From: Yuukianura sp. NJ FZ-2021 | Lineage: Eukaryota | DNA length: 64,000 nucleotides | Direction: 5' to 3' | NCBI GenBank assembly: GCA_046563655.1 | Contig: CM102285.1 | Location: 5,580,001 to 5,644,000, forward strand | Shown: positions 1 to 55,140 of the stretch, piece after piece | Layout: every line of letters begins with the position of its first letter | Position numbering within the stretch: position 1 is the first letter of the stretch | Notes under the pieces: model-generated | Databases searched by the model: none | Seen by the model: only the letters and a program-made list of their open reading frames with translations | Told to the model about the DNA's origin: nothing | Made by a program: the position numbers and the translations under genes

Positions 1-98
1 TTCAACGGGTTTGTGGACAGCTGGTCTAAAGGTCGTATCAATTGCCAACTCCCTCCAGAAGATCTATGCTCAACCCTTGAGCATTCCCCTACCTTGTT
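1..98 (+). mobile_element. 3' end of a HINE/DINE-1-like non-autonomous Helentron, same family as 6403-7340
   Basis: Ends ctccagaagatct-atgctcaacccttgagcat (stem-loop)-tcccctaccttgtt, closely matching the reverse complement of 6401-6480. It interrupts the Gypsy ORF. Confidence 0.75.
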
Positions 99-510
99 CT
101 TCTCCTTTCGAAAATGTTTGGACCCAAACGCGTTGACCAATGGTGAACTGACGCTGTTTTGACTTTTGGTCAAACTTTTCCTTTTGTTTAAGTTGGGAGT
201 TGGAGACTGAGGGTTGGACGTCAGGACGAACAAAATCCAACAAGCATTTCAACTTCCTTCCCTGCAATAGTTCGCATGGTGCTACTCCAGTAGTCGAATG
301 AGGGGTGATACGGTAGTTGAAAAGAAAACGTTGGAGAAAGAGTTCTGCATCTCCTGTGGATTTCTTCAAACTTTCCTTGAAGATACGGACGAAGCGTTCC
401 GCTTCCCCATTGGAACGGGGCTGGTAGGCGGAGCTTGTGGAATGACGTATTCCATTCGAAGAACAGAATGTTTTGAATTCGCCAGACGTAAATTGACTTC
501 CGTTGTCGCA
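99..510 (-). pseudogene. Ty3/Gypsy retrotransposon integrase fragment
   Basis: Minus frame reads CDNGSQFTSGEFKTFCSSNGIRHSTSSAYQPRSNGEAERFV...FLFNYRITPHSTTGVAPCELLQGRKL, covering the DNG and GxAER catalytic motifs and a GPY/F-like tail. Cut by satellite A on one side and the HINE on the other. Confidence 0.88.
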
Positions 511-517
511 CGGGTTT

Positions 518-3500
518 TATGTTACAAAGCATTTGAACGAATAGAGTTGTAAAAATTAACAAGGACGTTCCGTCGTGTGACAACATGCAGTTTGATAAGA
601 AATTGTCAAACCAAGTTGGAAATCCGGTGAAACCTCGCTTAACGAATACATTCATCTTGAGACCCAGGGCTATCGCCCCTCGGTAACAATGAATTTTTTT
701 TTCGGCTGAAATTTCTGATGTTGCATAGAGTTGTATATATCATTGAAAAAAATTCCGCTAGAACGTATGTTACAAAGCATTTGAACGAATAGAGTTGTAA
801 AAATTAACAAGGACGTTCCGTCGTGTGACGACATGAAGTTTGGTAAAAAAAAATAGTGAAACCAAGTTGGAGATCTGGTGAAACCTCGCTTAACGAATAC
901 AATCATTTTGAGACCTAGGGCAATCGCCCCTCGGTAACAGTGAATTTTTTTCCGGCTGAAATTTCTGATGTTGCAAAGACTTGTATATATCATTGAAAAA
1001 AATTCCGCTAGAACGTATGTTACAAAGCATTTGAACAAATAGAGTTGTAAAAATTAACAAGGACGTTCCGTCGTGTGACAACATGCAGTTTGATAAGAAA
1101 TTGTCAAAGCAAGTTGGAAATCCGGTGAAACCTCGCTTAACGAATACAATCATCTTGAGACCCAGGGCTATCGCCCCTCGGTAACAATGAATTTTTTTTG
1201 CGGCTGAAATTTCTGATGTTGCATAGAGTTGTATATATCATTGAAAAAAATTCCGCTAGAACGTATGTTACAAAGCATTTGAACGAATAGAGTTGTAAAA
1301 ATTAACAAGGACGTTCCGTCGTGTGACGACATGAAGTTTGGTAAAAAAAAATAGTGAAACCAAGTTGGAGATCTGGTGAAACCTCGCTTAACGAATACAA
1401 TCATTTTGAGACCTAGGGCAATCGCCCCTCGGTAACAGTGAATTTTTTTTCCGGCTGAAATTTCTGATGTTGTATAGAGTTGTATATATCATTGACAAAA
1501 ATTCCGCTAAAACGTATGTTACAAAGCATTTGAACGAATAGAGTTGTAAAAATTAACAAGGACGTTCCGTCGTGTGACAACATGCAGTTTGATAAGAAAT
1601 TGTCAAAGCAAGTTGGAAATCCGGTGAAACCTCGCTTAACGAATACAATCATCTTGAGACCCAGGGCTATCGCCCCTCGGTAACAATGAATTTTTTCTCC
1701 GGCTGAAATTTCTGATGTTGCAAAGAGTTGTATATATCATTGAAAAAAATTCCGCTAGAACGTATGTTAGAAAGCATTTGAACAAATAGAGTTGTAAAAA
1801 TTAACAAGGACGTTCCGTCGTGTGACAACATGCAGTTTGATAAGAAATTGTCAAACCAAGTTGGAAATCCGGTGAAACCTCGCTTAACGAATACAATCAT
1901 CTTGAGACCCAGGGCTATTGCCCCTCGGTAACAATGAATTTTTTTTCCGGCTGAAATTTCTGATGTTGTATAGAGTTGTATATATCATTGAAAAAAATTC
2001 CGCTAGAACGTATGTTACAAAGCATTTGAACAAATAGAGTTGTAAAAATTAACAAGGACGTTCCGTCGTGTGACAACATGCAGTTTGATAAGAAATTGTC
2101 AAACCAAGTTGGAAATCCGGTGAAACCTCGCTTAACGAATACAATCATCTTGAGACCCAGGGCTATCGCCCCTCGGTAACAATGAATTTTTTTCCGGCTG
2201 AAATTTCTGATGTTGTATAGAGTTGTATATATCATTGAAAAAATTCCGCTAGAACGTATGTTACAAAGCATTTGAACGAATAGAGTTGTAAAAATTAACA
2301 AGGACGTTCCGTCGTGTGACAACATGCAGTTTGATAAGAAATTGTCAAAGCAAGTTGGAAATCCGGTGAAACCTCGCTTAACGAATACAATCATCTTGAG
2401 ACCCAGGGCTATCGCCCCTCGGTAACAATGAATTTTTTTTCCGGCTGAAATTTCTGATGTTGCATAGAGTTGTATATATCATTGAAAAAAATTCCGCTAG
2501 AACGTATGTTACAAAGCATTTGAACGAATAGAGTTGTAAAAATTAACAAGGACGTTCCGTCGTGTGACGACATGCAGTTTGGTAAGGAATTGTGAAACCA
2601 AGTTGGAAATCTGGTGAAACCTCGCTTAACGAATACTATCATCTTGAGACCCAGGGCAATCGCCCCTCGCTTAAAGTGAATTTTTTTTCCGGCTGAAATT
2701 TCTGATGTTGTATAGAGTTGTATATATCATTGAAAAAATTCCGCTACAACGTATGTTACAAAGCATTTGAACGAATAGAGTTGTACAAATTAACAAGGAC
2801 GTTCTGTTGTGACAACATGCAGTTTGATAAGAAATTGTCAAAGCAAGTTGGAAATCCGGTGAAACCTCGCTTAACGAATACAATCATCTTGAGACCCAGG
2901 GCTATCGCCCCTCGGTAACAATGAATATTTTCTCCGGCTGAAATTTCTGATGTTGTATAGAGTTGTATATATCATTGACAAAAATTCCGCTAAAACGTAT
3001 GTTACAAAGCATTTGAACGAATAGAGTTGTAAAAATTAACAAGGACGTTCCGTCGTGTGACGACATGCAGTTTGGTAAGGAATTGTGAAACCAAGTTGGA
3101 AATCTGGTGAAACCTCGCTTAACGAATACTATCATCTTGAGACCCAGGGCTATCGCCCCTCGCTTAAAGTGAATTTTTTTCCGGCTGAAATTTCTGATGT
3201 TGTATAGAGTTGTATATATCATTGAAAAAATTCCGCTACAACGTATGTTACAAAGCATTTGAACGAATAGAGTTGTAAAAATTAACAAGGACGTTCCGTT
3301 GTGTGACAACATGCAGTTTGATAAGAAATTGTCAAAGCAAGTTGGAAATCCGGTGAAACCTCGCTTAACGAATACAATCATCTTGAGACCCAGGGCTATC
3401 GCCCCTCGGTAACAATGAATTTTTTCTCCGGCTGAAATTTCTGATGTTGTATAGAGTTGTATATATCATTGACAAAAATTCCGCTAAAACGTATGTTACA

Positions 3501-5632
3501 AAGCATTTGAACGAATAGAGTTGTAAAAATTAACAAGGACGTTCCGTCGTGTGACGACATGCAGTTTGGTAAGGAATTGTGAAACCAAGTTGGAAATCTG
3601 GTGAAACCTCGCTTAACGAATACTATCATCTTGAGACCCAGGGCTATCGCCCCTCGCTTAAAGTGAATTTTTTTTCCGGCTGAAATTTCTGATGTTGTAT
3701 AGAGTTGTATATATCATTGAAAAAATTCCGCTACAACGTATGTTACAAAGCATTTGAACGAATAGAGTTGTAAAAATTAACAAGGACGTTCCGTCGTGTG
3801 ACAACATGCAGTTTGATAAGAAATTGTCAAAGCAAGTTGGAAATCCGGTGAAACCTCGCTTAACGAATACAATCATCTTGAGACCCAGGGCTATCGCCCC
3901 TAGGTAACAATGAATTTTTTTTCCGGCTGAAATTTCTGATGTTGCAAAGAGTTGTATATATCATTGAAAAAAATTCCGCTAGAACGTATGTTACAAAGCA
4001 TTTGAACGAATAGAGTTGTAAAAATTAGCAAGGACGTTCCGTCGTGTGACGACATGAAGTTTGGTAAAAAAAAATAGTGAAACCAAGTTGGAGATCTGGT
4101 GAAACCTCGCTTAACGAATACAATCATTTTGAGACCTAGGGCAATCGCCCCTCGGTAACAGTGAATTTTTTTCCGGCTGAAATTTCTGATGTTGTATAGA
4201 GTTGTATATATCATTGACAAAAATTCCGCTAAAACGTATGTTACAAAGCATTTGAACGAATAGAGTTGTAAAAATTAACAAGGACGTTCCGTCGTGTGAC
4301 GACATGCAGTTTGGTAAGGAATTGTGAAACCAAGTTGGAAATCTGGTGAAACCTCGCTTAACGAATACTATCATCTTGAGACCCAGGGCAATCGCCCCTC
4401 GCTTAAAGTGAATTTTTTTTCCGGCTGAAATTTCTGATGTTGTATAGAGTTGTATATATCATTGAAAAAATTCCGCTACAACGTATGTTACAAAGCATTT
4501 GAACGAATAGAGTTGTACAAATTAACAAGGACGTTCCGTTGTGTGACAACATGCAGTTTGATAAGAAATTGTCAAAGCAAGTTGGAAATCCGGTGAAACC
4601 TCGCTTAACGAATACAATCATCTTGAGACCCAGGGCTATCGCCCCTCGGTAACAATGAATTTTTTCTCCGGCTGAAATTTCTGATGTTGTATAGAGTTGT
4701 ATATATCATTGACAAAAATTCCGCTAAAACGTATGTTACAAAGCATTTGAACGAATAGAGTTGTAAAAATTAACAAGGACGTTCCGTCGTGTGACGACAT
4801 GCAGTTTGGTAAGGAATTGTGAAACCAAGTTGGAAATCTGGTGAAACCTCGCTTAACGAATACTATCATCTTGAGACCCAGGGCTATCGCCCCTCGCTTA
4901 AAGTGAATTTTTTTTCCGGCTGAAATTTCTGATGTTGTATAGAGCTGTATATATCATTGAAAAAATTCCGCTACAACGTATGTTACAAAGCATTTGAACG
5001 AATAGAGTTGTAAAAATTAACAAGGACGTTCCGTCGTGTGACGACATGCAGTTTGGTAAGAAATTGTCAAAGCAAGTTGGAAATCCGGTGAAACCTCGCT
5101 TAACGAATACAATCATCTTGAGACCCAGGGCTATCGCCCCTCGGTAACAATGAATTTTTTTTCCGGCTGAAATTTCTGATGTTGCATAGAGTTGTATATA
5201 TCATTGACAAAAATTCCGCTAAAACGTATGTTACAAAGCATTTGAACGAATAGAGTTGTAAAAATTAACAAGGACGTTCCGTCGTGTGACGACATGCAGT
5301 TTGGTAAGGAATTGTGAAACCAAGTTGGAAATCTGGTGAAACCTCGCTTAACGAATACTATCATCTTGAGACCCAGGGCAATCGCCCCTCGCTTAAAGTG
5401 AATTTTTTTTCCGGCTGAAATTTTTGATGTTGTATAGAGTTGCATATATCATTGAAAAAAATTCCGCTAGAACGTCTGTTACAAAGCATTTGAACGAATA
5501 GAGTTGTAAAAATTAACAAGGACGTTCCGTCGTGTGACGACATGCAGTTTGGTCAGAAATTGTGAAACCAAGTTGGAAATCCGGTGAAACCTCGCTTAAC
5601 GAATACAATCATCTTGAGACCCAGGGCTATCG
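518..5632. repeat. Satellite A, ~248-bp monomer, ~21 copies, partly dimeric higher-order pattern
   Basis: The motif gaccc/tagggc(t/a)atcgcccctc recurs every ~246-251 bp; variant monomers alternate. Confidence 0.97.
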
Positions 5633-5637
5633 AAAAA

Positions 5638-6302
5638 GTCGCTGTGCGAAAATATTTTTAAGTACAATGATTCCAACGCGTGGCACAAAAGTCTAAAAGT
5701 TTTGAAGTTTTATATATAAGTTCTCCTGCTGCGTAAAATATTGGGTATGGTGTGCGAACGCTTTACGATGTCACTGTACGAAAATATTTTCAAGTACAAT
5801 GATTCCAACGCGTGGCACAAAAGTCTAAATGTTTTGAAGGCTTTTATATAAGTTCTCCTGCTGCGTAAAATATTGGGTACGGTATGCGAACGCTTTACGA
5901 TGTCGTTGTGCGAAAATATTTTTAACTACAATGATTCCAACGCGTGGCACAAAAATCTAAAAGTTTTGAAGGCTTTTATATAGTGAGGGGCAATAAAAAG
6001 TAGACACCCGGAAGTTGTTGCTACTGGCAACAAAGCAAACTGTCGTACATACTGGGGGGGAGTTTTTGTCAAACTAATTTTGTTTCAATGGCAACCTTGA
6101 GTTCAAAAGTTTTTTTTCGTGCAATTTGTCGTTAAGTTTCCCCAAGAAACTGAAGAATAAACAGAATGTTATTTTTTTCGGGTGTCTACTTTTTATTGCC
6201 CATCACTGTATAAGTTCTCCTGCTGCGTAAAATATTGGGTATGGCATTCGTAAAATATTGGGTATGGTATGCGAACGCTTTACGATGTCACTGTACGAAA
6301 AT
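5638..6302. repeat. Satellite B (132-bp monomer plus captured MITE), left of the Polinton
   Basis: tggcacaaaa at 5681, 5813 and 5945 gives a period of 132. Confidence 0.95.
5981..6208. mobile_element. Tc1/mariner-type MITE (representative copy; ~29 copies in satellite B)
   Basis: ~30-bp TIRs (c/t)agtgaggggcaataaaaagtagacacccg / cgggtgtctactttttattgcccatcactg, flanked by TA. Empty monomers read ttttatataagttc. Confidence 0.88.
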
Positions 6303-6402
6303 AGTAGAGTGTAGGGTAGGAATTTTGCTCCACTTATTTTTAGCTCAGCTGCAGGGGCTAGTCGGGCGCAATATTGGGGAGTGGAAAACCCTCAAAATCT
6401 AA
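6303..6402 (+). repeat. Polinton left TIR, outer 100 bp (continues at ~7341-7379 after the HINE)
   Basis: Exact reverse complement of 15828-15927. Confidence 0.95.
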
Positions 6403-7340
6403 CAAGGTAGGGCGATACTCAAGGGTTGAGCATAGGTCTTCTGGAGGGAGCTGACAATTGATACGACATTTAGACCGCCCTACCGCAAAACTGTGGACGA
6501 ACTGAGAAACTGTTTTCATGGGATTGAAGCCCTAAAACGTCGCTGAACATTTTCAGTGCGAATATGAAATCCTATTTTGTGCATGAGTTGCTCCAAAATT
6601 GTCTTGGCAATTCTACCGTTTAATTGAACCAAAATCATGTTAACGTTTTGAGGCCCAAAATATCTGCACTGAATTGATGTTGTTAATTTAGTGTGCACAA
6701 AATTGAACGTTTAGGAGAAGGAGTCCAATATCGTTCGTGATTGATGTTCTTAATTTGTTGAGGAAGATGCACATAATGTATTGTCGATGTTGCCATGGCA
6801 ATGCTCAAGGTAGTTCTCAAACCTGGACAAACCGTCAATTGTGTGCATCATGCACAAAATTGTACGTTGTAGGGTAGGGGTCGAATATCGTTTCTTTAAA
6901 ATCAAAATTATAAAAATTTCTTGTGAATGCAAATTTCAACCCTCCCGTTCGATGATTACGTGTTACGAATTTAAACCGGATTTTGAGCCCTCTCATCAGT
7001 CCCAAATTAACAACGTAAATAAACGTACTACCAGAAAATGACCAGATCAAAACTCCGTTGTTTAAAAATATTTTGAGTGCAATCGAAACTAAAACATTTC
7101 GGCGAGCCACGATACTGCGGGTACGTAAAGTAGCCGCCTGCTTCTACGTTGTTAATGTACGAGGTTGAGTGCAATGTAGACCTACTGGAAACTCTTGAGC
7201 CATACATAACCCCCCGACTGCGATGGGGCTAATGTTTCAGTGCAAAAGATCTTAAAAAGTGTGACGGACGGACAGACGGACAGACAAAGTCGTATCAATA
7301 GTCTTCTTCAGCATGTCGTAGACATGCGTCTCCAGAAGAC
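6403..7340 (-). mobile_element. HINE/DINE-1-like non-autonomous Helentron inserted in the Polinton left TIR
   Basis: Subterminal IRs gtcttctggag / ctccagaagac, GTCT/GTCC microsatellite at ~7263-7285, 3' stem-loop followed by cttgtt, inserted in a T-run. The right TIR shows the empty site. Confidence 0.82.
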
Positions 7341-7670
7341 TAAAAACGACAAAACATTGACAAAAATATCAACATCAAAAATATCAACAACAAAAATGTC
7401 AACGACAAATAGGTCAAACCCACAAAACAATAATAATTCAGCCCTTTTCTTGGAAAACACTCGTTTCTGTTGAAAAACGTTTTTGAGTTGTCCGTTTAAT
7501 CCTTTTTTCCAAGGAAATTTAAGTCGTTGGAATTGCTAAAAATAGAAAAAGGGTCAAACTTCTACCTGAAAATTTGAGATAAAAAGGCTGCTAAAATGCT
7601 CAGCAAACCATCAGTCTCATCTCGGCTTCACTTGAAACTTCTACTAAAAAACTACTCCTCAAGTACTACA

Positions 7671-8096
7671 ATGGTTGAAGCATACGCCGCAGGATTCGTA
7701 AGCAAGACTCTTGAAGACCGGGTCAAATGCTGGTGGAAGCTAGAAGATGGAGAATACAAAGTCTTCATCAAGAAGGATCGCTACTACACTACAATCGAAA
7801 TGAAGGAAATTCCGTTCTTCGTTTCGAAGCTGATTCTCTTCTACCTCTCTACGGGTCATCCAATGAGTGAGCTGCCAAACTTTGAACTATTGCTGTTGGA
7901 TTGCAAGGAGCGTTATGCGGAAAAGGGTCAACCGTCAAAGAAGCCGAAAATGGACATTGTGGCTGAAGCGATGAGTAAAGCTGTCTGGAACCGAAAATCG
8001 CCGTCACTCAAGTCTCGTCTGAATTCTATTCCCGAAGAAGAAGACTATGACGAAGTCGATACACAAAAATACTGGATTGAAGACACGAAATTTTAA
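7671..8096 (+). CDS. Polinton ORF of unknown function (alternative start at 7596)
   Basis: Open frame inside the element, preceded by gataaaa and TCAGT and followed by aataaa. No recognisable motif. Confidence 0.55.
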   Translation: MVEAYAAGFVSKTLEDRVKCWWKLEDGEYKVFIKKDRYYTTIEMKEIPFFVSKLILFYLSTGHPMSELPNFELLLLDCKERYAEKGQPSKKPKMDIVAEAMSKAVWNRKSPSLKSRLNSIPEEEDYDEVDTQKYWIEDTKF

Positions 8097-8264
8097 GCCC
8101 TTTTAGAAAGACATTTTGAACGCTATTTATACTTTAGAAATATTTCAAATTTTTTGCAAATTTTTTTAGTTTTAAGAATTGTAAAAATAAATTTTTGACT
8201 AAAACCGAAATGGTATTTACACGCTCGTCCTTCATTCTAAACGTTTAGTCTAAATCTAGCCGCC

Positions 8265-8969
8265 ATGGGAGACTTTTACGTGACTCTCCAGAGTGATTCT
8301 TCCTCAAATCATTATAAAGAAAACACAATTACAAATTTTAGAAATCATTTCGCTGAGACAATTCGATTAGAGGGTGTAAAATACGAGGTGGCGTTAGTAG
8401 AGTGTACATATGTTCATCACGAGTATATGCTGCACAAGGAAGGGTGGCTTCGACAAGTTGGTAGCGGGTCAATGTTTGATTTGCTCAGCATTTCCTCCGA
8501 AGACGCTGCATTGGTTCGGACAGCAGACGATCTTGCAAAACGTGTATCAGATAATATCGTACAAATTGAAATTAGAAATTCGAGAGCCAGATTTGTCAAG
8601 AAACCTGCTAAATCCTTTGTAAGGTTTAACGAAGAGGCTACTAAAATTCTTGGATACGATGAAGGAAAACAGAGTTTCGACTATGAAGTTTTTGAGCCTA
8701 GTGGACATACACAACTTTTCATCTACTGCAGTATAATTGAAAACCAACGTGTTGGAGGTGACCTTGCCCCACTGTTGAGGAAAATTTCAAATACTGGTGA
8801 CCACAAAAAGGTTGTGACCCGATCGTTTCAACATCTCCAATACATAGACGTTGTATTTGACGATATTGATCATATATGGATGTACATCATGACGGAATCT
8901 GGTGATCCACCAGCATTTACAGTCGGAACTTTTTCGGCAACTCTCCACTTTCGACGGAAGCGATACTGA
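8265..8969 (+). CDS. Polinton minor capsid (penton-like) protein
   Basis: N-terminal FYVTLQSDSS..Y..NTITNF...L.G..YEVALVE and C-terminal LFIYCSIIE.Q.VG...APLLR...LHFRR motifs. Confidence 0.82.
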   Translation: MGDFYVTLQSDSSSNHYKENTITNFRNHFAETIRLEGVKYEVALVECTYVHHEYMLHKEGWLRQVGSGSMFDLLSISSEDAALVRTADDLAKRVSDNIVQIEIRNSRARFVKKPAKSFVRFNEEATKILGYDEGKQSFDYEVFEPSGHTQLFIYCSIIENQRVGGDLAPLLRKISNTGDHKKVVTRSFQHLQYIDVVFDDIDHIWMYIMTESGDPPAFTVGTFSATLHFRRKRY

Positions 8970-9035
8970 CGAGTATAAAACCAGCTCTCTCAAAAAATTT
9001 GCAATCATTAACTCTTCAAACGTCAAACTGGCAAC

Positions 9036-10415
9036 ATGTACAAATGCAACTTGAGCGAGGAAGATTTTTTCAGAATATACAATCCCCAGAGAGGAGGGGC
9101 TGTGGGATCAGACGGAGCCGTTTTCTTCAAAGCCAATCAGTTTTCAATGAGAAGTGAAACTGACATTTTCAGTGAACCCGAAATGGACGTTAGTCTGCAA
9201 AGTAGTGGAATGTTTGAGTATCATCCACTGTCAACGCTAAGTGAAAATGGAGGCCCAATTTCTTTTCAAGTGAAGGGCAATGACGTTCACTATGTGGATC
9301 TTAGTGAAACTTTGTTATATGTTCGCTGTAAAATTTTAAAAGCAAATCAAGATCCACTCGATGATAGAGCTACAATGCGAATTGCTCCAGTCAACAACTT
9401 TTTACATTCCTTGTTTCAGCAGTGCTCTGTGTTTCTAAATGAAACACAAATTACCCCCACAATGTCGCTCTATCCTTATCGAGCATACATTGAGACTGTG
9501 CTTGCTTATGGTGGAGACTACAAAGATACACAAGCAGTTACAGCTCTTTATTTGAGAGAAGAAGACAATTTGACTGACACTGACGCTTCCCACAAAAAGA
9601 GACAAGAATTGGCAACCAAGGGGTTGGATATGATTGGACGACCGTTTGCAGACATCTTTGCACAAACTCGATACTTGCTTCCTGGAATTGACATTAGAGT
9701 TACTTTCAACCGCTCCACTGAAGAATTTGCACTCCACTCTCAGGCAGACAATACAAATCGCTACAAAATCAGCATGACTGAAGCAAGACTTTTAGTTAAA
9801 AAACACACACTGCTGCCGAATATTTTGAATTGTCATTTGAAAATGTGGACAAATGGACAGCCAGCATGCTATCCAATGCGACGGATTGAGATGAAAACGT
9901 ACAGTCTACCCCTTGGAACTCTGTCAAATGTCAATGAAAACTTGATTAGTGGACTACTCCCCGACAGAATTATACTTTGTCTGGTTCAAAGTGAAAAAAT
10001 GAACGGAACTCTAACTACAAATCCATTTGACTTTAAACCGCCAGAGTTGAGACAAATTTCTGTGACAGCAAATGGAGAACAACTTTACCATCAAGTTTAC
10101 CAATACAGCAGTGATGGAGACGTTCGCGTTTCTGAAGCATACTATGGCATGTTTAATGGACTTGGACTGAGCGCTAGCAATGAAGGACCTGCCATTAGCC
10201 TTTCCGAGTTTACAAATGGAAAAGCTTTTTTCATTTTTAACCTCAGAAACATGAATCAAGGCTACTGTCCTCCAAGACATGGGAGTATAAAAATCGTTGT
10301 TCAGTTTGCAAAGGGGATCACTGAAGCCTGGAACGTCATTTGTCACGCTGACTTTCAATCGACGCTCTACATAGACGAAGGAAAGAACGTGTTCTTCAAG
10401 GATTATTCTCACTAA
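9036..10415 (+). CDS. Polinton major capsid protein (double jelly-roll), 459 aa
   Basis: SETDIF...EYHP...GPISF...YVDLSETLLYVRCKI...PVNNFLHSLF...YPYRAYIETVL...TNPFDF motifs. Confidence 0.88.
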   Translation: MYKCNLSEEDFFRIYNPQRGGAVGSDGAVFFKANQFSMRSETDIFSEPEMDVSLQSSGMFEYHPLSTLSENGGPISFQVKGNDVHYVDLSETLLYVRCKILKANQDPLDDRATMRIAPVNNFLHSLFQQCSVFLNETQITPTMSLYPYRAYIETVLAYGGDYKDTQAVTALYLREEDNLTDTDASHKKRQELATKGLDMIGRPFADIFAQTRYLLPGIDIRVTFNRSTEEFALHSQADNTNRYKISMTEARLLVKKHTLLPNILNCHLKMWTNGQPACYPMRRIEMKTYSLPLGTLSNVNENLISGLLPDRIILCLVQSEKMNGTLTTNPFDFKPPELRQISVTANGEQLYHQVYQYSSDGDVRVSEAYYGMFNGLGLSASNEGPAISLSEFTNGKAFFIFNLRNMNQGYCPPRHGSIKIVVQFAKGITEAWNVICHADFQSTLYIDEGKNVFFKDYSH

Positions 10416-10939
10416 TGGACACTACTCAAATTTACCAATTTCTATCAAATATGACTCGTGGAACAAGAGCATATTTCAATGTAATTCCATGCGACCTGCT
10501 GGCAAAGCTAACAATTGCTCGCTTTCCAGCCTTCCTGGTTGTAAACAACAAGCCTTCAAATCATCCTGGGGAACATTGGGTGGCAATCTACATTGGAGGC
10601 AGGACTGGACCAATCATCTTCTTTTGCTCTTATGGACTTGGACTGGACTTTTACCCTGACGATTTTAGAAATTTTGTAAATAAGTTTTCATGTAAAATTT
10701 TGGAAAACACTAGACCATTGCAAGCTATTGATTCTGATGTTTGCGGACAATATGCAATTTATTTTTTGTATAAAATGATGCATGGCTGTTGTATTTTATC
10801 TACTTATTGTCACTTTTCTCCCAATAGAAATTTAAATGATAAAAAAGTACGAAAATTTGTTACATTGAAAAATCATTTATTGAATTCAAATTGTAAATTT
10901 AAACACAAAATAATAAATCAGTGTTGTATAAAATTGTAA
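10415..10939 (+). CDS. Adenain-like cysteine maturation protease
   Basis: GEHWVAIY (His) and LQ...SDVCGQYAIYFL (Gln, Cys). Start overlaps the capsid stop (TAATG). Confidence 0.88.
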   Translation: MDTTQIYQFLSNMTRGTRAYFNVIPCDLLAKLTIARFPAFLVVNNKPSNHPGEHWVAIYIGGRTGPIIFFCSYGLGLDFYPDDFRNFVNKFSCKILENTRPLQAIDSDVCGQYAIYFLYKMMHGCCILSTYCHFSPNRNLNDKKVRKFVTLKNHLLNSNCKFKHKIINQCCIKL

Positions 10940-10959
10940 ATTTTTTGTTGTCTTCAAAT

Positions 10960-11616
10960 TTATTCCCAATTGGCTGGAGGTATCCATTCTTCTAGAAAGG
11001 TGTAATCCAATCGAGGCCGTTTCCTAGGGGAGCTTTTTCGAGTTTTTCCAGGAGTGTCGGAGTCGTCTTCATTAAAGTGGTGAAGATGTGTTTTTGGCAG
11101 AAGAGACAATGGAAATCCTTTTGAGATTAAAAAGCATTTGATTGGCTCGAGTTCAGTCTTTGAAATTTTGCATCTTCCATTTGACAGTTTCTTTAGAATT
11201 GAATCAAATGTTGAAAGTGGTAGCGATCCACCGTCAAACGACACAACGCCTGAAGCTAGTGTCGCTCCATTGTCAATAAAAAACTGTAAAAGATGAACTC
11301 CAACTCTAGTACGACCGCCAAAGTCAAATTTCTCTTCTGGAGGTGGTTTTGCTGGAACATCTGCTGGAGTACCCACTGATGAAATTTCTACATGCGGCTC
11401 TTGTATTGGTTTGACATCTGGCTTTTCACGTTTTTTCTTGTCTGCCAATCGTCGTAAAACGTCTTGAAGTAATATGTTTTGAATTTCTTCCGAATCTTTT
11501 AGGTTCAGCAGCTGATTCTTTTCATTTTCCAGTCGTCCCACTTCAGTTGGTTTAGAAGATTGAGATATTAGACGCTCAAAGTCTGCCTCAGTAATAACCT
11601 TCAATTTTGTGGGCAT
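10960..11616 (-). CDS. Polinton hypothetical protein, 218 aa
   Basis: ATG-initiated ORF directly downstream of the QxGGFL gene, with a charged, helical-looking N-terminus. Confidence 0.65.
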   Translation of the reverse strand: MPTKLKVITEADFERLISQSSKPTEVGRLENEKNQLLNLKDSEEIQNILLQDVLRRLADKKKREKPDVKPIQEPHVEISSVGTPADVPAKPPPEEKFDFGGRTRVGVHLLQFFIDNGATLASGVVSFDGGSLPLSTFDSILKKLSNGRCKISKTELEPIKCFLISKGFPLSLLPKTHLHHFNEDDSDTPGKTRKSSPRKRPRLDYTFLEEWIPPANWE

Positions 11617-11618
11617 GT

Positions 11619-11954
11619 TTAAAACAGTTCGCCTAGAAGCTCTCCTATAACTGGAATTGCTGCACCAAGTAACAACGGTAGGAATCCGCCTTGTTGAACA
11701 AGAAGACGACGCTTGTGATCTGCTCTTCCTCTGTGTGATATCAGACGTCTGATGTGTTCCTAATGAGGAACAAGGCGTTTTATAGCTTTGGCTGGGATCT
11801 CCAAGCGGCCGTTGTATACATTGTTAACACACTCACAAATTGCCCCAATTTGCTCAGGGCTTGCACTATGCAAATGTAAAGCCCGTTTCTTTTCAGAACG
11901 AGAATTCAAGTTTTTTAGAAAACTGAGATGCTAGTCGATTTTGCTTCTGACCAT
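11619..11954 (-). pseudogene. Small conserved Polinton protein (ICECxxN...QxGGFLP), two nonsense codons
   Basis: Translates MVRSKID*HLSFLKNL...IGAICECVNNVYNG...PH*EHIRRL...KRRLLVQQGGFLPLLLGAAIPVIGELLGELF. TAG at 11931-11933 and 11760-11762. Missing from the ORF track. Confidence 0.78.
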
Positions 11955-12019
11955 TTTGATTGCTGGAAACTGAATGATATAAATTGCACTGTGCGGTGCC
12001 CTTTTATATCACTTACACA

Positions 12020-12940
12020 ATGGATCTGAAACAACGATGGCAGGACACCTCACTGCCTGGAGGCTTCTCTGGAGCTGCTGGGTTTCAAAAAGATTCAAAA
12101 ACGAAAGCCTCTCTTCACAGAGTGAAGAAAATTTTGAAACAAATTCCAAGTTATCAGCTCCATCATCCAGTTCGATATAGATTCCCACGCCGTCGGGTAT
12201 ATGTGGGAGGTATGCATGAACAGTACTGTGCAGACTTGAAAGACATTCAAAGCATGTCAGGAGCTAATAATAAGAAGAGGTACCTGCTGGTGGTGATTGA
12301 CGCATTTTCAAAACAAGCCTGGATCGAAGCAATTCCAAACAAGACGGGGCCAGTAACTCTTGCAGCATTTGAAAAAATTTTACAACGGAGTGGTGGAAAA
12401 CCTAGATGTTTGCAAGTAGATGAAGGTTCAGAATTTTTAAATAGACACATGAAAGCTTATTTGAAGCGTGAAGATATCAAACTCTTCTGGACACATTCTC
12501 CACTAAAATGTGTTATTGTGGAGCGTTTCATTCGAACACTATTTATGAAAATTCAGCGCTACTTGACACACTACAAAACAAAAAAGTTTGTTGATAAGTT
12601 GTCAGATTTTGAGAATCTGTACAATCATGCTTATCATCGAAGTATCAAGATGGCGCCATGTGAAGTGACTAAGGGAAATGAGGATAAAGTACGCCAAAAC
12701 TTGTATCCAGAAGTAGCAGTGGACTATAAAAAGCCAAAACTCAAACCAAACGATCTCGTGCTTGTTGCCAGAATTAAAAAAACTTTTGAAAAGGGCTACT
12801 CGACAAACTATATTGACGAAGTTTATCGCATCGTAAGGATTAAAGCGACTAAACCATACGTTTACAAGTTAGAAGATCTCGAGGGCACCCCTATTCTGGG
12901 TAGTTTTTATGACAAGCCACTACTGAAATTGGACCAGTAG
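12020..12940 (+). CDS. Polinton retroviral-like (RVE) DDE integrase
   Basis: CADLKD, YLLVVIDAFSK, LQVDEGSEF, IVERFIRT, YNHAYHRSIKMAP and FEKGY motifs; no chromodomain tail. Confidence 0.93.
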   Translation: MDLKQRWQDTSLPGGFSGAAGFQKDSKTKASLHRVKKILKQIPSYQLHHPVRYRFPRRRVYVGGMHEQYCADLKDIQSMSGANNKKRYLLVVIDAFSKQAWIEAIPNKTGPVTLAAFEKILQRSGGKPRCLQVDEGSEFLNRHMKAYLKREDIKLFWTHSPLKCVIVERFIRTLFMKIQRYLTHYKTKKFVDKLSDFENLYNHAYHRSIKMAPCEVTKGNEDKVRQNLYPEVAVDYKKPKLKPNDLVLVARIKKTFEKGYSTNYIDEVYRIVRIKATKPYVYKLEDLEGTPILGSFYDKPLLKLDQ

Positions 12941-13202
12941 CTCCACAGAACTCTGCCAGAAAACATGTGTTTTTTCAAAGTTTGCGAGTACTTTTTGACC
13001 AAGATGTTTGGAAGCAAGGAAGATCCCACCATTTCCGTTTGCGACGAGAACAAGATTAGCTGCATGTGCTGCTCAACGACTGCAAGACGAGGCTCAACCA
13101 AACAACGTACTGTTTTAGTTACTGAATTGTAAAATACATTTAATTCAAGAATTTCTGAATAAATCAATTCAAAAAGCGCAAAATTTTTGTTTTAAATTTT
13201 AT

Positions 13203-14132
13203 TTAGTCGTTGACATAAACATAACAATTTTCGGGAAAAATGCTACTTCGAATTCGATAGTCGTCCTTTTGTGATTGAGTTAAATCAATGAAAAGATAGC
13301 CATAGTGTTTCGCCATGCTTTCCTTGTATGCCAGATCCATTGTCGCGTTCTTCTTTCCTCCATTTATTTGTCTTCCAAGGCAGGAAACAAAAGCCGAGTC
13401 TCGTGGATTTTTCATTAGCACCAAGTATTGGCAGTTGAGCGTGATTTCTCTCAAATTTTTGTGAAAAAAATTTTGAACCAAAATAATCAGCGACACGTTG
13501 CGGTGATGAGAAGTTCTGGTAAAGGCAGCTCCAACATCTCCCTTCTTTCCAGCTTCATGCATCAAGTCATCCAGAATCATGATCGAAGGTCGATCTGTTC
13601 CGTCATGCCACTTCTCGGGCAGCCCTTGAACAAACTGAATGCCTGGAATTTTGGTTTTTAATTCTCCAAAGAGAGCAGACTGCCATTCCGTGTAACAATA
13701 AGTTACATTCGCAATTCCGCTCGAAGTTTTTACAATTTCGTTTCTTCGAATCAGAATTTCTTTGACGAGAGTGCTCTTGCCCGTGTTTGTCATTCCACTG
13801 ACACACATTGTAAAAGGAGCCACAAGTTGCAAGTCAATATCATCACCAGACCTTGGATGCTGAAGTAAGGTGGTGGTGGTGGTGGTGGAATCCCAAGGCA
13901 TTGTGGTGGTGGTGGTGGTGGTGGAATCCCAAGGCATTGTGGTGGTGGTGGTGGTGGAATCCCAAGGCATTGTGGTGGTGGTGGTGGGGGTGGCGGCGGT
14001 GGTGGCGGCGGCGGCGGTGGTGGTGGAGTCCAACAGTAGCGCAGCAGAAAGACATTTCGAACAAGTCTTTTCGTGACGCTTTGCAGCATCTATACGTGAA
14101 AATAAGTTTCCGCAACGAGAGTAGATCCGCAT
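13203..14132 (-). CDS. A32/FtsK-like genome packaging ATPase with Thr-rich N-terminal extension
   Basis: Walker A GMTNTGKS, Walker B IMILDDLM, SHHRNVSLIILVQN, MKNPRD and YGYLFIDL motifs. Confidence 0.9.
   Translation of the reverse strand: MRIYSRCGNLFSRIDAAKRHEKTCSKCLSAALLLDSTTTAAAATTAATPTTTTTMPWDSTTTTTTMPWDSTTTTTTTMPWDSTTTTTTLLQHPRSGDDIDLQLVAPFTMCVSGMTNTGKSTLVKEILIRRNEIVKTSSGIANVTYCYTEWQSALFGELKTKIPGIQFVQGLPEKWHDGTDRPSIMILDDLMHEAGKKGDVGAAFTRTSHHRNVSLIILVQNFFHKNLREITLNCQYLVLMKNPRDSAFVSCLGRQINGGKKNATMDLAYKESMAKHYGYLFIDLTQSQKDDYRIRSSIFPENCYVYVND
13869..14028. repeat. (GGT)n microsatellite with an embedded gaatcccaaggcatt minisatellite x3, in frame in the ATPase
   Basis: Encodes (T)nMPWDS repeats. 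Confidence 0.9.
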
Positions 14133-14314
14133 GATTCAAAGAGTAAATGACGACTAAACTCGATTTTAAAATTTTCTTGATTTATATACGAATATTTGAA
14201 TTTTAAATAATACAATTAAATTTTAGTACTAATTAAATTAAAAAATAAATAAATAAATAAATAAATAAATAAAATAAAGTCAATAAATTAAATTAAAAAA
14301 TAAAATTAACTTAA

Positions 14315-14895
14315 GGACGTGTGGTATGCGTCTAATAAACAATAATCGTTAAATTTAGTAACCACGATAACCGAGTTTTTGCAGTTAGTAAAAGATGCAG
14401 ACATCGACAAAAAGAAACACCATCGTGAGTGGTGAAAAAGGATCAGTGCAAAGATGATCAAAAAAAGTATGCACTTTCAAACAAACAAAATACTGACACA
14501 AGTTCGGTTGCCGTCGTCTGGGTTTTGTCAACAATTTTTCTGAGGCTGCGACATTGAAATTGAAAAACGGTCTGGGTCAGCGTAGGAATGTCATGCAGTG
14601 ACCCACAATGTATCAAACTTTAGGAAAAGATTTGATCTAGTTTCTCGCTAAAAAAAAATTACAAAATTTTAGTTGTAACTGTAAAAAAGATGGACCCAAA
14701 CATTCCACCTCCATATTTACATAGATCGAACTAAAACTTTGTAATTTTTTTTAGCGAGAAACTAGATCAAGTCTTTTCCTAAAGTTTGATATATTGTGGG
14801 TCACTGTATGACATTCCTACGATGTCCTAGATCATTTTTCATTTTATGTGCTACAGCGGCATTTTGACCCCTAGTTTCCAGGGTGTCCGCACACC
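14315..14895. mobile_element. TTAA-flanked non-autonomous element (Kolobok-like) nested in the Polinton
   Basis: TTAA|GG...CC|TTAA; internal ~94-bp inverted repeat (14581-14674 / 14729-14821); related copy at 36701-37214. Confidence 0.7.
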
Positions 14896-14980
14896 TTAAA
14901 CAATTAAATATTAAATAAAATAAAGTAAAATTAACTTTGAAAAATTAAATAAAATAAAAACAAAAACAATTACAATTGTA

Positions 14981-15792
14981 TTAGGCTGGAATATCTTTAT
15001 GTCCAAAAGCTAAAGTGTTTACATTATCTACAGCGTATCTCTTGGTGTCCAATCCGGTGAGAGCCTTCTTCATGGTTACTTCTGTAAAAATTCGGTGTTC
15101 GACGCTTCTGAAACCACGCATGGTAACCATAGTCTGCACATTCTCCTTGAGAACTCGCTCATAGTCTTCATACTTGACCTGGCCGTTAACAGCTGTTTTT
15201 GTGATCCCCTTTGCCTTCTTGGTATACTCATCCTTCAACAGCCATTCACCATCCGGCTTCTTTTGAAATTCTCCTCCGACTTGAGCCACCTTTAAGGATC
15301 GGATAGTGTACATTTTGGGGCGGGGACAATAGACATGAGTGATCACAGCTCCAGCGGCTTCATCCTTGAATTTTCCAAGGACTTTTTTGTTTGACGGGTT
15401 ATGGAACTTTCCAAATTGTGGATGATTCTCTGGGTATTCACTCATATCGTAGAGATCCTTGCGTTCTAGCATGTCCTGATAGATGTGAGGCCACGGGTTC
15501 GATTCCCGTCTGAGCCCCCACATGTGAGGAAGCAAAAGTAAGGTTGGCAGTGTTGTCCACTGCACCATGGCTACCTCCTGGCCCACTAGAGGCGAACAAC
15601 CAGACTTTGCTTCCTCCGTGTGACTGGCCTAGCCACACACCCCACATAGACGTCATCCGTTTGAATCTGATAGATGAAGGAATCAGTATCAGTGTAAATC
15701 AGCCGGCACTTGTCGCCATATTGTGCTTGCATTCCGGCGCTGTGATGTCGGTACATGATACTCTTAGCCAAGTCCAAGATGGTGACTCCTGT
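14981..15792 (-). pseudogene. polB: Protein-primed family B DNA polymerase, C-terminal remnant
   Basis: TGVTILDLAKSIMY...LIYTDTDSF...VLGKFKDE...RPKMY...KKAKGI...DTKRY...TLAFGH. Interrupted at 15484-15646; N-terminal part absent. Confidence 0.93.
15484..15646. mobile_element. 163-bp TGT...ACA insertion, probable solo LTR, with tRNA-like B-box
   Basis: TAGA duplicated at 15480-15483 and 15647-15650. Removing it restores QTDDVYQDMLER in pPolB. Confidence 0.8.
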
Positions 15793-15927
15793 TTGATGTT
15801 GATATTTTTGTCAATGTTTTGTCGTTTTTAGATTTTGAGGGTTTTCCACTCCCCAATATTGCGCCCGACTAGCCCCTGCAGCTGAGCTAAAAATAAGTGG
15901 AGCAAAATTCCTACCCTACACTCTACT
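15792..15927 (-). repeat. Polinton right TIR (136 bp remaining)
   Basis: Matches 6303-6402 plus ~7341-7379. Confidence 0.93.
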
Positions 15928-18900
15928 AAAATATTTTTAAGTACAATGATTCCAACGCGTGGCACAAAAGTCTAAAAGTTTTGAAGGCTTTTATATAAGT
16001 TCTCCTGCTGCGTAAAATATTGGGTATGGTGTGCGAACGCTTTACGATGTCGCTGTGCTAAAATATTTTTAAGTACAATGATTCCAACGCGTGGCACAAA
16101 AGTCTAAATGTTTTGAAGGCTTTTATATAAGTTCTGCTGCTGCGTAAAATATTGGGTATGGTGTGCGAACGCTTTACGATGTCGCTGTGCTAAAATATTT
16201 TTAAGTACAATGATTCCAACGCGTGGCACAAAAGTCTAAATGTTTTGAAGGCTTTTATATAAGTTCCCCTGCTGCGTAAAATATTGGGTATGGTATGCGA
16301 ACGCTTTACGATGTCGTTGTGCGAAAATATTTTTAACTACAATGATTCCAACGCGTGGCCCAAAAATCTAAAAGTTTTGAAGGCTTTTATATAGTGAGGG
16401 GCAATAAAAAGTAGACACCCGGAAGTTGTTGCTACTGGCAACAAAGCAAACTGTCGTACATACTAGGGGGGAGTTTTTGTCAAACTAGTTTTGTTTCAAT
16501 GGCAATCTTGAGTTCAAAAGTTTTTTTTCGTGCAATTTGTCGTTAAATTTCCCCAAGAAACTGAAGAATAAACAGAATGTTATTTTTTTCGGGTGTCTAC
16601 TTTTTATTGCCCATCACTGTATAAGTTCCCCTGCTGCGTAAAATATTGGGTATGGCATTCGTAAAATATTGGGTATGGTATGCGAACGCTTTACGATGTC
16701 ACTGTACGAAAATATTTTTAAGTACAATGATTCCAACGCGTGGCACAAAAGTCTAAAAGTTTTGAAGGCTTTTATATAAGTTCTCCTGCTGCGTAAAATA
16801 TTGGGTATGGTGTGCGAACGCTTTACGATGTCGCTGTGCTAAAATATTTTTAAGTACAATGATTCCAACGCGTGGCACAAAAGTCTAAATGTTTTGAAGG
16901 CTTTTATATAAGTTCTCCTGCTGCGTAAAATATTGGGTATGGTATGCGAACGCTTTACGATGTCGTTGTGCGAAAATATTTTTAACTACAATGATTCCAA
17001 GGCGTGGCACAAAAATCTAAAAGTTTCGAAGGCTTTTATACAGTGAGGGGCAATAAAAAGTAGACACCCGGAAGTTGTTGCTACTGGCAACAAAGCAAAC
17101 TGTCGTACATACTGGGGGGAAGTTCTTGTCAAACTCAATCACAATTTTGTTTCAATGGCAATCTTGAGTTCAAAAGTTTTTTTTCGTGCAATTTGTCGTT
17201 AAGTTTCCCCCAGAAACTGAAGAATAAACAGAATGTTATTTTTTCGGGTGTCTACTTTTTATTGCCCATCACTGTATAAGTTCTCCTGCTGCGTAAAATA
17301 TTGGGTATGGCATTCGTAAAATATTGGGTATGGTATGCGAACGCTTTACGATGTCACTGTACGAAAATATTTTTAAGTACAATGATTCCAACGCGTGGCA
17401 CAAAAGTCTAAAAGTTTTGAAGGCTTTTATATAAGTTCTCCTGCTGCGTAAAATATTGGGTATGGTATGCGAACGCTTTACGATGTCACTGTACGAAAAT
17501 ATTTTTAAGTACAATGATTCCAACGCGTGGCACAAAAGTCTAAAAGTTTTGAAGGCTTTTATATAAGTTCTCCTGCTGCGTAAAATATTGGGTATGGTGT
17601 GCGAACACTTTACGATGTCGCTGTGCTAAAATATTTTTGAGTACAATGATTCCAACGCGTGGCACAAAAGTCTAAATGTTTTGAAGGCTTTTATATAAGT
17701 TCTGCTGCTGCGTAAAATATTGGGTATGGTGTGCGAACGCTTTACGATGTCGCTGTGCGAAAATATTTTTAAGTACAATGCTTCCAACGCGTGGCACAAA
17801 AGTCTAAAAGCTTTGAAGGCTTTTATATAAGTTCTCCTGCTGCGTAAAATATTGGGTATGGTATGCGAACGCTTTACGATGTCGTTGTGCGAAAATATTT
17901 TTAACTACAATGATTCCAAGGCGTGGCACAAAAATCTAAAAGTTTTGAAGGCTTTTATATAGTGAGGGGCAATAAAAAGTAGACACCCGGAAGTTGTTGC
18001 TACTGGCAACAAAGCAAACTGTCGTACATACTGGGGGGGAGTTTTGTCAAACTAATTTTGTTTCAATGGCAATCTTGAGTTCAAAAGTTTTTTTCGTGCA
18101 ATTTGTCGTTAAATTTCCCCAAGAAACTGAAGAATAAACAGAATGTTATTTTTTTCGGGTGTCTACTTTTTATTGCCCATCACTGTATAAGTTCCCCTGC
18201 TGCGTAAAATATTGGGTATGGCATTCGTAAAATATTGGGTATGGTATGCGAACGCTTTACGATGTCACTGTACGAAAATATTTTTAAGTACAATGATTCC
18301 AACGCGTGGCACAAAAGTCTAAAAGTTTTGAAGGCTTTTATATAAGTTCTCCTGCTGCGTAAAATATTGGGTATGGTGTGCGAACGCTTTACGATGTCGC
18401 TGTGCGAAAATATTTTTAAGTACAATGATTCCAACGCGTGGCACAAAAGTCTAAATGTTTTGAAGGCTTTTATATAAGTTCTCCTGCTGCGTAAAATATT
18501 GGGTATGGTATGCGAACGCTTTACGATGTCGTTGTGCGAAAATATTTTTAACTACAATGATTCCAACGCGTGGCACAAAAATCTAAAAGTTTTGAAGGCT
18601 TTTATATAGTGAGGGGCAATAAAAAGTAGACACGCGGAAGTTGTTGCTACTGGCAGCAAAGCAAACTGTCGTACATACTGGGGGGGAGTTTTTGTCAAAC
18701 TAATTTTGTTTCAATGGCAATCTTGAGTTCAAAAGTTTTTTTTCGTGCAATTTGTCGTTAAATTTCCCCAAGAAACTGAAGAATAAACAGAATGTTATTT
18801 TTTTCGGGTGTCTACTTTTTATTGCCCATCACTGTATAAGTTCTCCTGCTGCGTAAAATATTGGGTATGGCATTCGTAAAATATTGGGTATGGTATGCGA

Positions 18901-47413: not shown

Positions 47414-55140
<7,727 letters not shown>

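Follow-up and report, generated by a model that had tools for sequence, protein, structure and literature searches.

Animal Polintons, also called Mavericks and proposed as the Adintoviridae by Starrett et al. (2021, PMC8502044), are the closest described counterparts of the element found in the window, the 64-kb stretch of DNA analysed here. The element shares with them terminal inverted repeats (TIRs), an rve integrase and an adenain-like protease, together with a double-jelly-roll capsid protein and penton and an ATPase of the A32/IVa2-like type. Protein-primed PolB (pPolB) is present as a remnant, and there is a short target-site duplication (TSD), of 5 bp here. The order of the penton, capsid and protease genes is also that of its relatives. 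In contrast to animal Polintons, however, its polymerase is cut to the last ~15%.

Truncated and polB-lacking Polinton copies have already been published, and the window copy is one more of these ordinary defective copies, if a well-preserved one. In Pieris mannii, polinton-related variants without polB and with nested retroelements are reported among insertion/deletion variants (bioRxiv 10.1101/2025.02.07.637071). These resemble the window copy in being Polinton derivatives that have lost polB and carry nested elements but, as they are described in that report, differ from it in that the window shows a plain internal deletion with a C-terminal stub beside the TIR. In Caenorhabditis elegans, one species is described as carrying both incomplete and fuller copies of a Polinton family (PMC11414722); the remnants in that description retain the end with the polymerase but not the integrase, whereas the window copy is the reverse.

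A full-length relative, L007, occurs on a metagenome contig (element at about 6015–21171) and is ~15.2 kb long, with TIRs of 173 nt (99% complementary). Like the window copy it has AGTAG...CTACT termini and a 5-bp duplication, both elements differing in the latter from the TSD of 6 bp that is cited for Polintons (PMC3014272). It also carries an integrase, penton, capsid, protease, minus-strand accessory ORF, ATPase and minus-strand polymerase, the proteins being 29–46% identical to those of the window. Unlike the window copy, it has a complete polymerase of 1314 aa, with ~3.5 kb of extra sequence separating the start of that gene from the TIR, and its integrase gene lies upstream of the penton gene rather than downstream of the protease gene.

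Termini, insertion site and size

The interval 6303–15927 is an integrated, virus-like Polinton (Maverick/adintovirus-type) copy in an animal genome; it is replication-defective and belongs to a multi-copy family. The initial annotation had classified it as a Polinton that retains its ends and its morphogenesis and integration genes but has no usable polymerase, and the present analysis supports this. Its features, in window coordinates and with the strand where one applies, are:

6298–6302, left TSD copy AAAAT, in a 132-bp satellite monomer
6303–15927, Polinton/Maverick-type provirus, within the 132-bp satellite
6303–6402 (+), outer 100 nt of the left TIR, beginning with AGTAG; its reverse complement matches 15828–15927 at 100%
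6403–7339, nested 937-bp insertion, a very high-copy repeat, flanked by CTAA at 6399–6402 and 7340–7343 and splitting the left TIR
7340–7379 (+), left TIR, inner 40 nt including the second CTAA, 100% complementary to 15792–15831
7360–7417 (+), 15-nt subterminal tandem repeats, 3.3–3.9 copies; the right arm ends inside the array, at the deletion junction
7578–8096 (+), ORF of 172 aa
8241–8969 (+), penton (minor capsid, single jelly roll), Met at 8265, open, identified by fold match
9012–10415 (+), major capsid protein (double jelly roll), open
10352–10939 (+), adenain-like (C5) cysteine protease, open, with Met at 10415; overlap of the ORF with the capsid 3' end
10960–11823 (−), accessory ORF of 287 aa, open, probable Met at residue 70
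11978–12940 (+), rve (retrovirus-like, DDE) integrase, Met at 12020, open
13203–14135 (−), genome-packaging ATPase (FtsK/HerA superfamily, A32/IVa2-like), open
13870–13993 (−), tandem repeat within the ATPase ORF, 3.5 copies of 33–36 nt
14136–14980, AT-rich, repeat-filled spacer between the ATPase and the pPolB remnant
14557–14845, MITE-like 289-bp hairpin in the spacer, an inverted repeat with 101-nt arms (91%)
14981–15481 (−), pPolB remnant, 3' piece, 166 aa and stop
15484–15645, tRNA-like, partly palindromic 162-bp insertion with a 5-bp duplication, TCTAT; it frameshifts the pPolB remnant
15646–15791 (−), pPolB remnant, 5' piece, 48 aa with the YTDTDS motif
15792–15927 (−), right TIR, 136 nt, unbroken, by repeat search and base-by-base comparison
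15928–15932, right TSD copy AAAAT

The inverted-repeat search returned the TIR arms as two pairs, 6302–6405/15825–15928 (104 nt, 99%) and 7340–7379/15792–15831 (40 nt, 100%). A mismatch suggested at 6403 was rejected, the base-by-base comparison having shown that a nested insertion begins at that base. By the same comparison the TIRs are 136 nt each and match at 136/136 positions. The identity of the arms had been recognised previously; it is added here that the left one is split by the 937-bp insertion: the left TIR proper consists of 6303–6402 and 7344–7379, with CTAA doubled around the insert. The 18-nt terminus has exactly two occurrences in the window (≤2 mismatches) compared with none in 100 shuffles, and no second TIR end or second element copy was found within the 64 kb.

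The TSD, AAAAT, is perfect, as had been stated, and its length is corrected here to 5 bp, the sixth base (A) being ambiguous (contig joint 6297->15928). The satellite around the element extends over >25 kb, and the earlier view that the insertion in it is clean holds, because the empty-site 30-mer (both flanks, with the duplication counted once) is present 17 times in the satellite of the window. Subtraction of 937, 167 and 289 bp for three inserts reduces the 9625 bp of the element to 8232 bp; the previous estimate of ~7.9 kb is approached if more of the repeat-rich spacer is taken out. The intact genes, ~5.3 kb in total, contain no stop and no frameshift, which, with the absence of any difference across the 136 nt of the TIR arms, points to a young copy.

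Open genes

Open frames had been proposed for the penton, capsid, protease, integrase and ATPase. They are all open, and the list can be extended by two further open ORFs, 7578–8096 (+) and 10960–11823 (−). The first matches no Pfam family, and three of its four listed differences between copies are synonymous. The second matches nothing in Pfam or Atlas. Both L007 and L002 have an ORF in the corresponding place and orientation that it weakly resembles (E 2e-8 and 2e-4, respectively), by which it is a putative clade-specific accessory gene.

The penton gene immediately precedes the capsid gene, as it does in relatives. Its product was modelled by AlphaFold with a pLDDT of 71, and the top Foldseek matches were to the mavirus penton (6g41/6g42, E 8e-7), the Sputnik penton and the adenovirus penton base, and to adintovirus and adomavirus LO5 proteins. 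For the major capsid protein 521 relatives were found, the best at 72% identity; the closest are 428–448 aa long, and the alignment of relatives with the window protein begins near residue 46. All 24 invariant alignment columns are kept. The capsid model (pLDDT 82.9) matched the capsid proteins of iridovirus, Sputnik, PBCV-1 and mavirus in Foldseek (E 2.9e-15 to 7e-12). The Pfam family DJR-like_dom was matched (E ≤ 0.01) by five of the 26 aligned capsid members, the window capsid itself not being among them.

In profile searches the protease matched the adenovirus protease (4piq/1avp, E 1.3e-10 and 3.3e-9) and also ASFV S273R. His54, Gln103 and Cys110 fall in invariant columns and are present in the window protein, while the acidic position is occupied by Cys in the window and in the relatives L001 and L011. 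The integrase scores 43 bits with Pfam rve (5.9e-11; cut-off 32.6 bits) and keeps the D86, D148 and E182 columns. It has no chromodomain, as is also the case in L002, L007 and L068, and it lacks a C-terminal extension of ~45–55 aligned residues seen in more distant integrases; this extension, which no Pfam match names, we take to be the chromodomain.

The packaging ATPase has a lineage-specific N-terminal extension of ~90 aa, and its Walker A (G114...G119 K120) and Walker B (D189 D190) residues are present in invariant columns. With Pox_A32 the window protein scores 17.2 bits, under the cut-off of 22.8, but among seven relatives scanned three orthologues were above the cut-off for Pox_A32 and one for Adeno_IVa2; profile searches of the PDB gave generic P-loop matches only. 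The tandem repeat inside the ORF leaves the reading frame unbroken and is translated into a Thr-rich repeat.

Polymerase remnant and nested insertions

That only the C-terminal part of pPolB survives had been reported, and the comparison with relatives agrees: the two pieces correspond to residues 1205–1252 (5' piece) and 1252–1396 (3' piece) of a 1399-aa relative, so that the last ~195 of ~1300–1400 residues remain and ~85% of the gene is gone. Relatives' polymerases gave 121 matches at E ≤ 0.001, and the remnant begins at the position of residue 1113 in the polymerase of L007 (1314 aa). The 5' piece adjoins the right TIR, the boundary 15791/15792 being the deletion junction; the frame begins exactly at the inner TIR edge, with an in-frame stop just upstream, within the TIR. 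A single internal deletion extends from within the right subterminal repeats to about codon 1113–1205 of pPolB and takes everything upstream of the YTDTDS motif. The window copy itself thus lacks the protein-primed polymerase that is a feature of Polintons, although its descent from the family is clear by homology. Since no usable polymerase is left, the element is presumably unable to copy its own DNA.

At least the 937-bp repeat is probably younger than the integration, because the right TIR does not have it. Its first ~75 nt are 91% like positions 23–98 of the window, and its summed contig depth is 22,000–179,000 compared with ~600–3,000 in the element interior, depth not being equal to copy number. 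The spacer between the ATPase and pPolB likewise has a contig depth, again not a copy number, of 18,000–25,000, and within it 14311–14532 is 74% like 36697–36916. None of the three clear nested insertions has hit an intact gene, for which the chance is ~0.046 if sites are uniform. It could be that the sparing of genes reflects selection filtering insertions in a lineage that still propagates, but a preference for AT-rich targets, combined with the choice of a copy for its open frames, could account for it equally well.

Origin of the copy and state of its family

Contigs from four public DNA runs were placed on the window, their depths not being readable as copy numbers. In run X1 there were 2606 contigs on the stretch (633 at least 99% alike, 966 at 95–99% and 1007 at 90–95%), and the family is multi-copy. 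The missing part of pPolB is not in the reference of this comparison, to which full-length copies are therefore invisible. The best-supported 40 of 906 differences include 30 within ORFs; 20 of these 30 are synonymous (0.26 expected, p = 3e-6) and 23 are at codon position 3 (0.33 expected, p = 1e-6). Counted from the likely start codons, 19/27 differences are synonymous (p = 2e-6). With a multi-copy family whose listed differences are mostly synonymous, helpers may therefore exist, though none was seen.

A one-off defective copy is the preferred explanation, with a probability of about 0.6, the one-off part being a guess based on priors. The element entered a satellite monomer by an insertion of the rve-integrase type, with a 5-bp duplication. 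The deletion may have been made in the round of replication that yielded this molecule, which would have been born defective and then integrated, or it may have occurred at this locus soon after integration. The initial annotation had offered two possibilities, a copy that decayed in place and a helper-dependent derivative; integration of an already deleted genome, a defective product of replication, adds a third, for which the junction would also be unique to the locus. The open frames would result from youth and not from selection acting on the window copy. With both ends kept, a full-length relative could in principle still replicate and move the element. Against a one-off origin it can be said, by order-of-magnitude reasoning, that a big in-place deletion in so young a copy would be a rare event.

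A more tentative reading is that of a helper-dependent lineage, in which the polymerase was deleted once and the shortened form was then copied by the enzyme of full-length relatives and inserted time and again. It would behave as a parasite of its own family, much like a defective interfering virus, and would supply its own capsid, protease, ATPase and integrase. Consistent with this are the intact and identical ends, the integrity of every other gene, the position of the three clear nested insertions, the many contigs at least 99% alike, some of them several times deeper than exact-match ones (579 versus 64–120 in X1, as contig depths), and the polB-lacking polinton-related structural variants of a butterfly (bioRxiv 10.1101/2025.02.07.637071, as given in the legend of Fig. 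4h-i). However, the 937-bp insert is in the left TIR only, which is unexpected had the molecule replicated after that insertion, and the TIR depth at 15841 (2836 in X1) shows no excess over the interior. Moreover, a derivative served in trans needs no intact genes of its own, so the open frames are not specific support. That a germline Polinton lineage of this defective-interfering-like kind is propagating, having shed only its polymerase, being copied by that of full-length relatives and keeping the genes for virion formation, packaging and integration, is regarded as unlikely. If true, such a lineage would stand to its own virus family as a 'satellite', one still capable of particle formation and integration.

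An assembly artefact, with the TIR–polymerase join or the whole arrangement produced by a mis-join or collapse in repeat-rich satellite, is very improbable. The surroundings of >25 kb of satellite and the multi-copy family would favour such an error, and among the contig pieces listed none covers the whole stretch, but the duplication is precise, removal of the element restores the satellite monomer exactly, the TIR arms are identical, the polymerase frame begins exactly at the inner TIR edge, and hundreds of contigs match the stretch at 99% or more. Domestication of a capsid–integrase module, with frames kept open by host use and not by youth, is scarcely credible: in its favour, seven ORFs have stayed open although the polymerase is dead and the copy has taken up several nested insertions, but the satellite location and perfect TIRs and duplication fit a recent insertion, and the synonymous excess is among many paralogous copies, as a replicating family gives.

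Under the preferred reading of a one-off defective copy, the value of the locus lies in the family that it marks, with many near-identical copies, a strong synonymous excess over the open genes pooled and very close relatives under a second organism label, and the host is a candidate for the study of a currently or recently active animal Polinton. Should several loci prove to carry the same polymerase-less form, trans-dependence within a self-synthesising element would be clearly exemplified, and there would be a means of sorting cis-acting from trans-acting functions.

Termini, target site and gene content

The element at 6303-15927 is a young, polymerase-truncated provirus in a multi-copy Polinton family, and the initial annotation of it holds as a whole, with small corrections. 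An inverted-repeat scan returned two pairs of arms, 6302-6405/15825-15928 (104 nt, 99%) and 7340-7379/15792-15831 (40 nt, 100%), which are a single terminal inverted repeat (TIR) of 136 nt. The right TIR (15792-15927) is unbroken; in the left, the outer 100 nt are followed by a 937-bp insertion (6403-7339) with CTAA duplicated on either side. Since this insertion begins with the base scored as the lone 'mismatch' (6403), the arms agree at 136 of 136 positions; they had been described as identical from the outset, to which the splitting of the left arm is a correction. With up to 2 mismatches allowed, the 18-nt TIR terminus is found at two places only in the 64-kb window and never in 100 shuffles. 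As an exact pattern it gave no match in the viral contig collection, and no close relative of the ends was present in the other collections searched.

AAAAT stands on each flank of the element, as expected from the perfect target duplication reported initially. A sixth duplicated base is ambiguous (contig joint 6297->15928, 'both 6'), and the length is read as 5 bp because an apparently complete relative on the metagenome contig L007 has the AGTAG...CTACT termini in common with the element and an unambiguous 5-bp duplication, CTAGT. That relative (6015-21171) has 173-nt TIRs (99%), and is about 15.2 kb long whereas the element is 9625 bp. The duplication of 5 bp in this clade differs from the 6 bp that the cited source gives as typical of Polintons (PMC3014272). 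When the flanks are joined with a single copy of the duplication, the resulting 30-mer is found 17 times in the surrounding 132-bp satellite, so the insertion is clean, in line with the original description.

Seven frames are open in the standard code: those for penton, capsid, protease, integrase and ATPase, all previously called open, and two additional ORFs.

Open frames of the element (window coordinates, strand where recorded)
8241-8969, Met 8265: penton; in relatives always directly upstream of the capsid gene
9012-10415: capsid; the protein collection contains 521 relatives, up to 72% identical
10415-10939, Met 10415: protease; a profile including 16 relatives matches adenovirus protease (E 1.3e-10) and also ASFV S273R
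Met 12020: integrase; Pfam rve at 5.9e-11, passing the cut-off, with the D, D and E columns kept
13203-14135, minus strand: ATPase; Walker A and Walker B motifs kept
287 aa, minus strand: accessory ORF; weak relatives, matching in position and strand, on L007 (E 2e-8) and at a second locus, L002 (E 2e-4)
172 aa, plus strand: accessory ORF

The gene set, gene order, ends and integration footprint are the ones described for animal Polintons/Mavericks, the proposed Adintoviridae (PMC8502044, PMC4028283). The closest relatives of the capsid protein are 428-448 aa long, some carrying the NCBI name 'F54H12.2-like', and each of the 24 columns that are invariant across a 26-sequence alignment is kept. 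The protein had no match in the phage collection, and its alignment none in a sequence-profile search of the PDB. Its structural model (pLDDT 82.9) matches the double-jelly-roll capsid proteins of iridovirus, Sputnik, PBCV-1 and mavirus (E 2.9e-15 to 7e-12). For the penton, the model (pLDDT 71, its beta core being confident) matches the pentons of mavirus and Sputnik and the adenovirus penton base, as well as the adintovirus and adomavirus LO5 proteins.

The protease retains its invariant His, Gln and Cys. At the 'FDS' motif in the alignment of protease relatives (A3), most relatives carry Asp, which we take to be the acidic residue of the adenain-type catalytic set, and the element and two of the related loci (L001 and L011) carry Cys. 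This replacement resembles a clade feature more than a sign of decay. Taken alone, the ATPase falls below the Pox_A32 cut-off, which three of seven scanned relatives pass, one of the seven passing Adeno_IVa2; a PDB profile search with the ATPase alignment gave generic P-loop matches only. Pfam searches with single proteins of the element gave nothing but rve and the sub-threshold Pox_A32. A 33-36-nt tandem repeat (13870-13993) lies within the ATPase ORF without breaking the frame and codes for a Thr-rich unit, part of an N-terminal extension absent from relatives. An Atlas search with the 287-aa ORF gave no usable match, and for the 172-aa ORF no Pfam family and no convincing relative were found.

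The polymerase remnant and its junction

On the minus strand, a 48-aa piece of the protein-primed polymerase (pPolB) containing YTDTDS begins exactly where the right TIR ends on its inner side. It is followed by a 162-bp insertion (15484-15645), surrounded by a 5-bp duplication and shifting the frame, and then by a 166-aa piece that ends at a stop codon. In alignments with a 1399-aa relative, these pieces correspond to residues 1205-1252 and 1252-1396, and the remnant starts at residue 1113 of the 1314-aa polymerase of L007, in which Pfam found no family at E <= 0.01. Full-length polymerase relatives are mostly 1200-1400 aa long, and by alignment to them about 85% of pPolB is missing, including everything upstream of YTDTDS, which confirms that only the C-terminal part survives, as had been proposed. 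Immediately upstream of the remnant, within the TIR, there is a stop codon in frame. The 162-bp interruption starts with GT and has AG at its end, but its reading as an intron is less likely, since the 5-bp duplication and the alignment of relatives fit an insertion better.

Beyond the shared 136 nt, the left arm runs on with further copies of a 15-nt repeat, and the right arm ends 2 bases into the next unit. Because the right arm ends within a repeat unit, the outer breakpoint of the deletion probably lay inside a TIR that was once longer.

Related copies and the history of the deletion

Contigs were taken from four public DNA runs, of which three represent a single sample of organism A and the fourth represents organism B. 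In the run X1, 2606 contigs lie on the stretch, of which 633 are at least 99% alike, 966 are 95-99% and 1007 are 90-95% alike, and the spreads of identity in the other runs are similar. Among the X1 pieces listed with 0-2 differences, depth is about 64-579, and the interior bins sum to about 600-3000, values that are not readable as copy numbers; summed depth is higher on the polymerase stub, and such part-to-part differences were left out of the interpretation. The contigs show a multi-copy Polinton family with very close members. In X4, the run from organism B, the pieces listed come mostly from the capsid module, and contigs 97-98% alike cover 8592-8969 (7 differences in 378 nt) and 12474-12820 (10 in 347 nt), reflecting either closely related hosts or recent transfer.

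Of 906 differences between copies, the best-supported 40 were used, 30 of them in ORFs. In this subset, 20 of the 30 ORF differences are synonymous and 23 fall on the third base of a codon, against fractions of 0.26 and 0.33 expected for the same ORFs under the observed change spectrum (p = 3e-6 and 1e-6, respectively; rough ratio 0.17). When the best-supported ORF differences are counted from likely start codons only, 19 of 27 are synonymous (p = 2e-6). Such an excess indicates that divergence between copies has been mostly under purifying selection, as expected of a replicating virus-like family, a result that concerns the divergence of the family and has no direct bearing on selection at this copy. 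In comparisons with the closest relatives that have DNA, saturation of synonymous sites is to be expected, as protein identity is about 73% over a fragment at the locus L018 and at most 54% for the others.

Identical TIR arms, together with genes unbroken over about 5.3 kb, point to a young copy. The 937-bp repeat is present in one arm only, which argues that at least this insertion is later than the last replication. We favour, with a probability of roughly 0.6, a history in which the polymerase was lost either in place, after integration, or from the molecule before it integrated; in both cases the junction between TIR and polymerase would be unique to this locus. By order-of-magnitude reasoning, a copy this young is unlikely to have lost several kilobases in place, and this favours a molecule already deleted at integration, or a history of repeated copying, over loss in place. 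Repeated copying, in which a deleted lineage is copied and integrated again and again by means of a helper's polymerase and the element would be a virion-competent derivative, is a tentative alternative to a single deleted copy. A weak hint in its direction is that all three clear insertions lie outside intact genes (chance about 0.046 under uniform sites), but target preference, or the way in which the copy was picked, would explain their placement too. An assembly artefact is very improbable. Incomplete Polinton copies are already well documented, the cited accounts describing partial Polintons in C. elegans (PMC11414722) and degraded endogenous adintoviruses across animals (PMC8502044). Polinton-related structural variants lacking polB are described for the butterfly Pieris mannii (bioRxiv 10.1101/2025.02.07.637071). 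The open-access literature searched yielded no work that explicitly demonstrates amplification in trans of a Polinton lineage without polymerase. Repbase contains a few non-autonomous Polinton families.

Nested repeats and genomic surroundings

Subtracting the 937-bp and 167-bp interruptions and a 289-bp hairpin element (14557-14845) leaves 8232 bp. The net length of about 7.9 kb in the initial annotation is a fair estimate, as the remainder of the spacer 14136-14980 is likewise rich in repeats. Summed contig depth on the nested repeats is 18,000-179,000, so they are members of abundant repeat families. The hairpin is MITE-like, with 101-nt arms (91%); two plant miRNA families, matched there in an Rfam search of 6000-16300, are far below their gathering scores and are read as hairpin look-alikes. 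One X1 contig (depth 187) passes from position 12338, within the integrase gene, into the beginning of the 937-bp repeat (6401), and is read as a separate hit of this repeat family in the integrase gene of another Polinton copy. A second integrase fragment (73-516, minus strand; Pfam rve 1.3e-6 and rve_3, each below the cut-off) probably belongs to a retroelement at the edge of the window, and the adjoining 23-98 shows 91% similarity to the initial ~75 nt of the 937-bp repeat.

The element lies inside a satellite array of a 132-bp unit (5638-31656), which from about 19.4 kb has a regular pattern of ~520 bp with a 23-bp sub-repeat. Another array (518-5632) has a 248/495-bp period, 20.6 copies and 93-96% identity. 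About 3 kb separate the end of the satellite from the first host exon, which is Tam41-like (34935-35456; 8e-22). Further along are NIDO and VWA domains (39345-41748; 7.5e-24 and 3.8e-23) and a DMRTA-like ORF (47417-48586; DMA motif 3.9e-8, Atlas match of 0.94 to a DMA cluster), and with these exons beside the satellite block the host is an animal.
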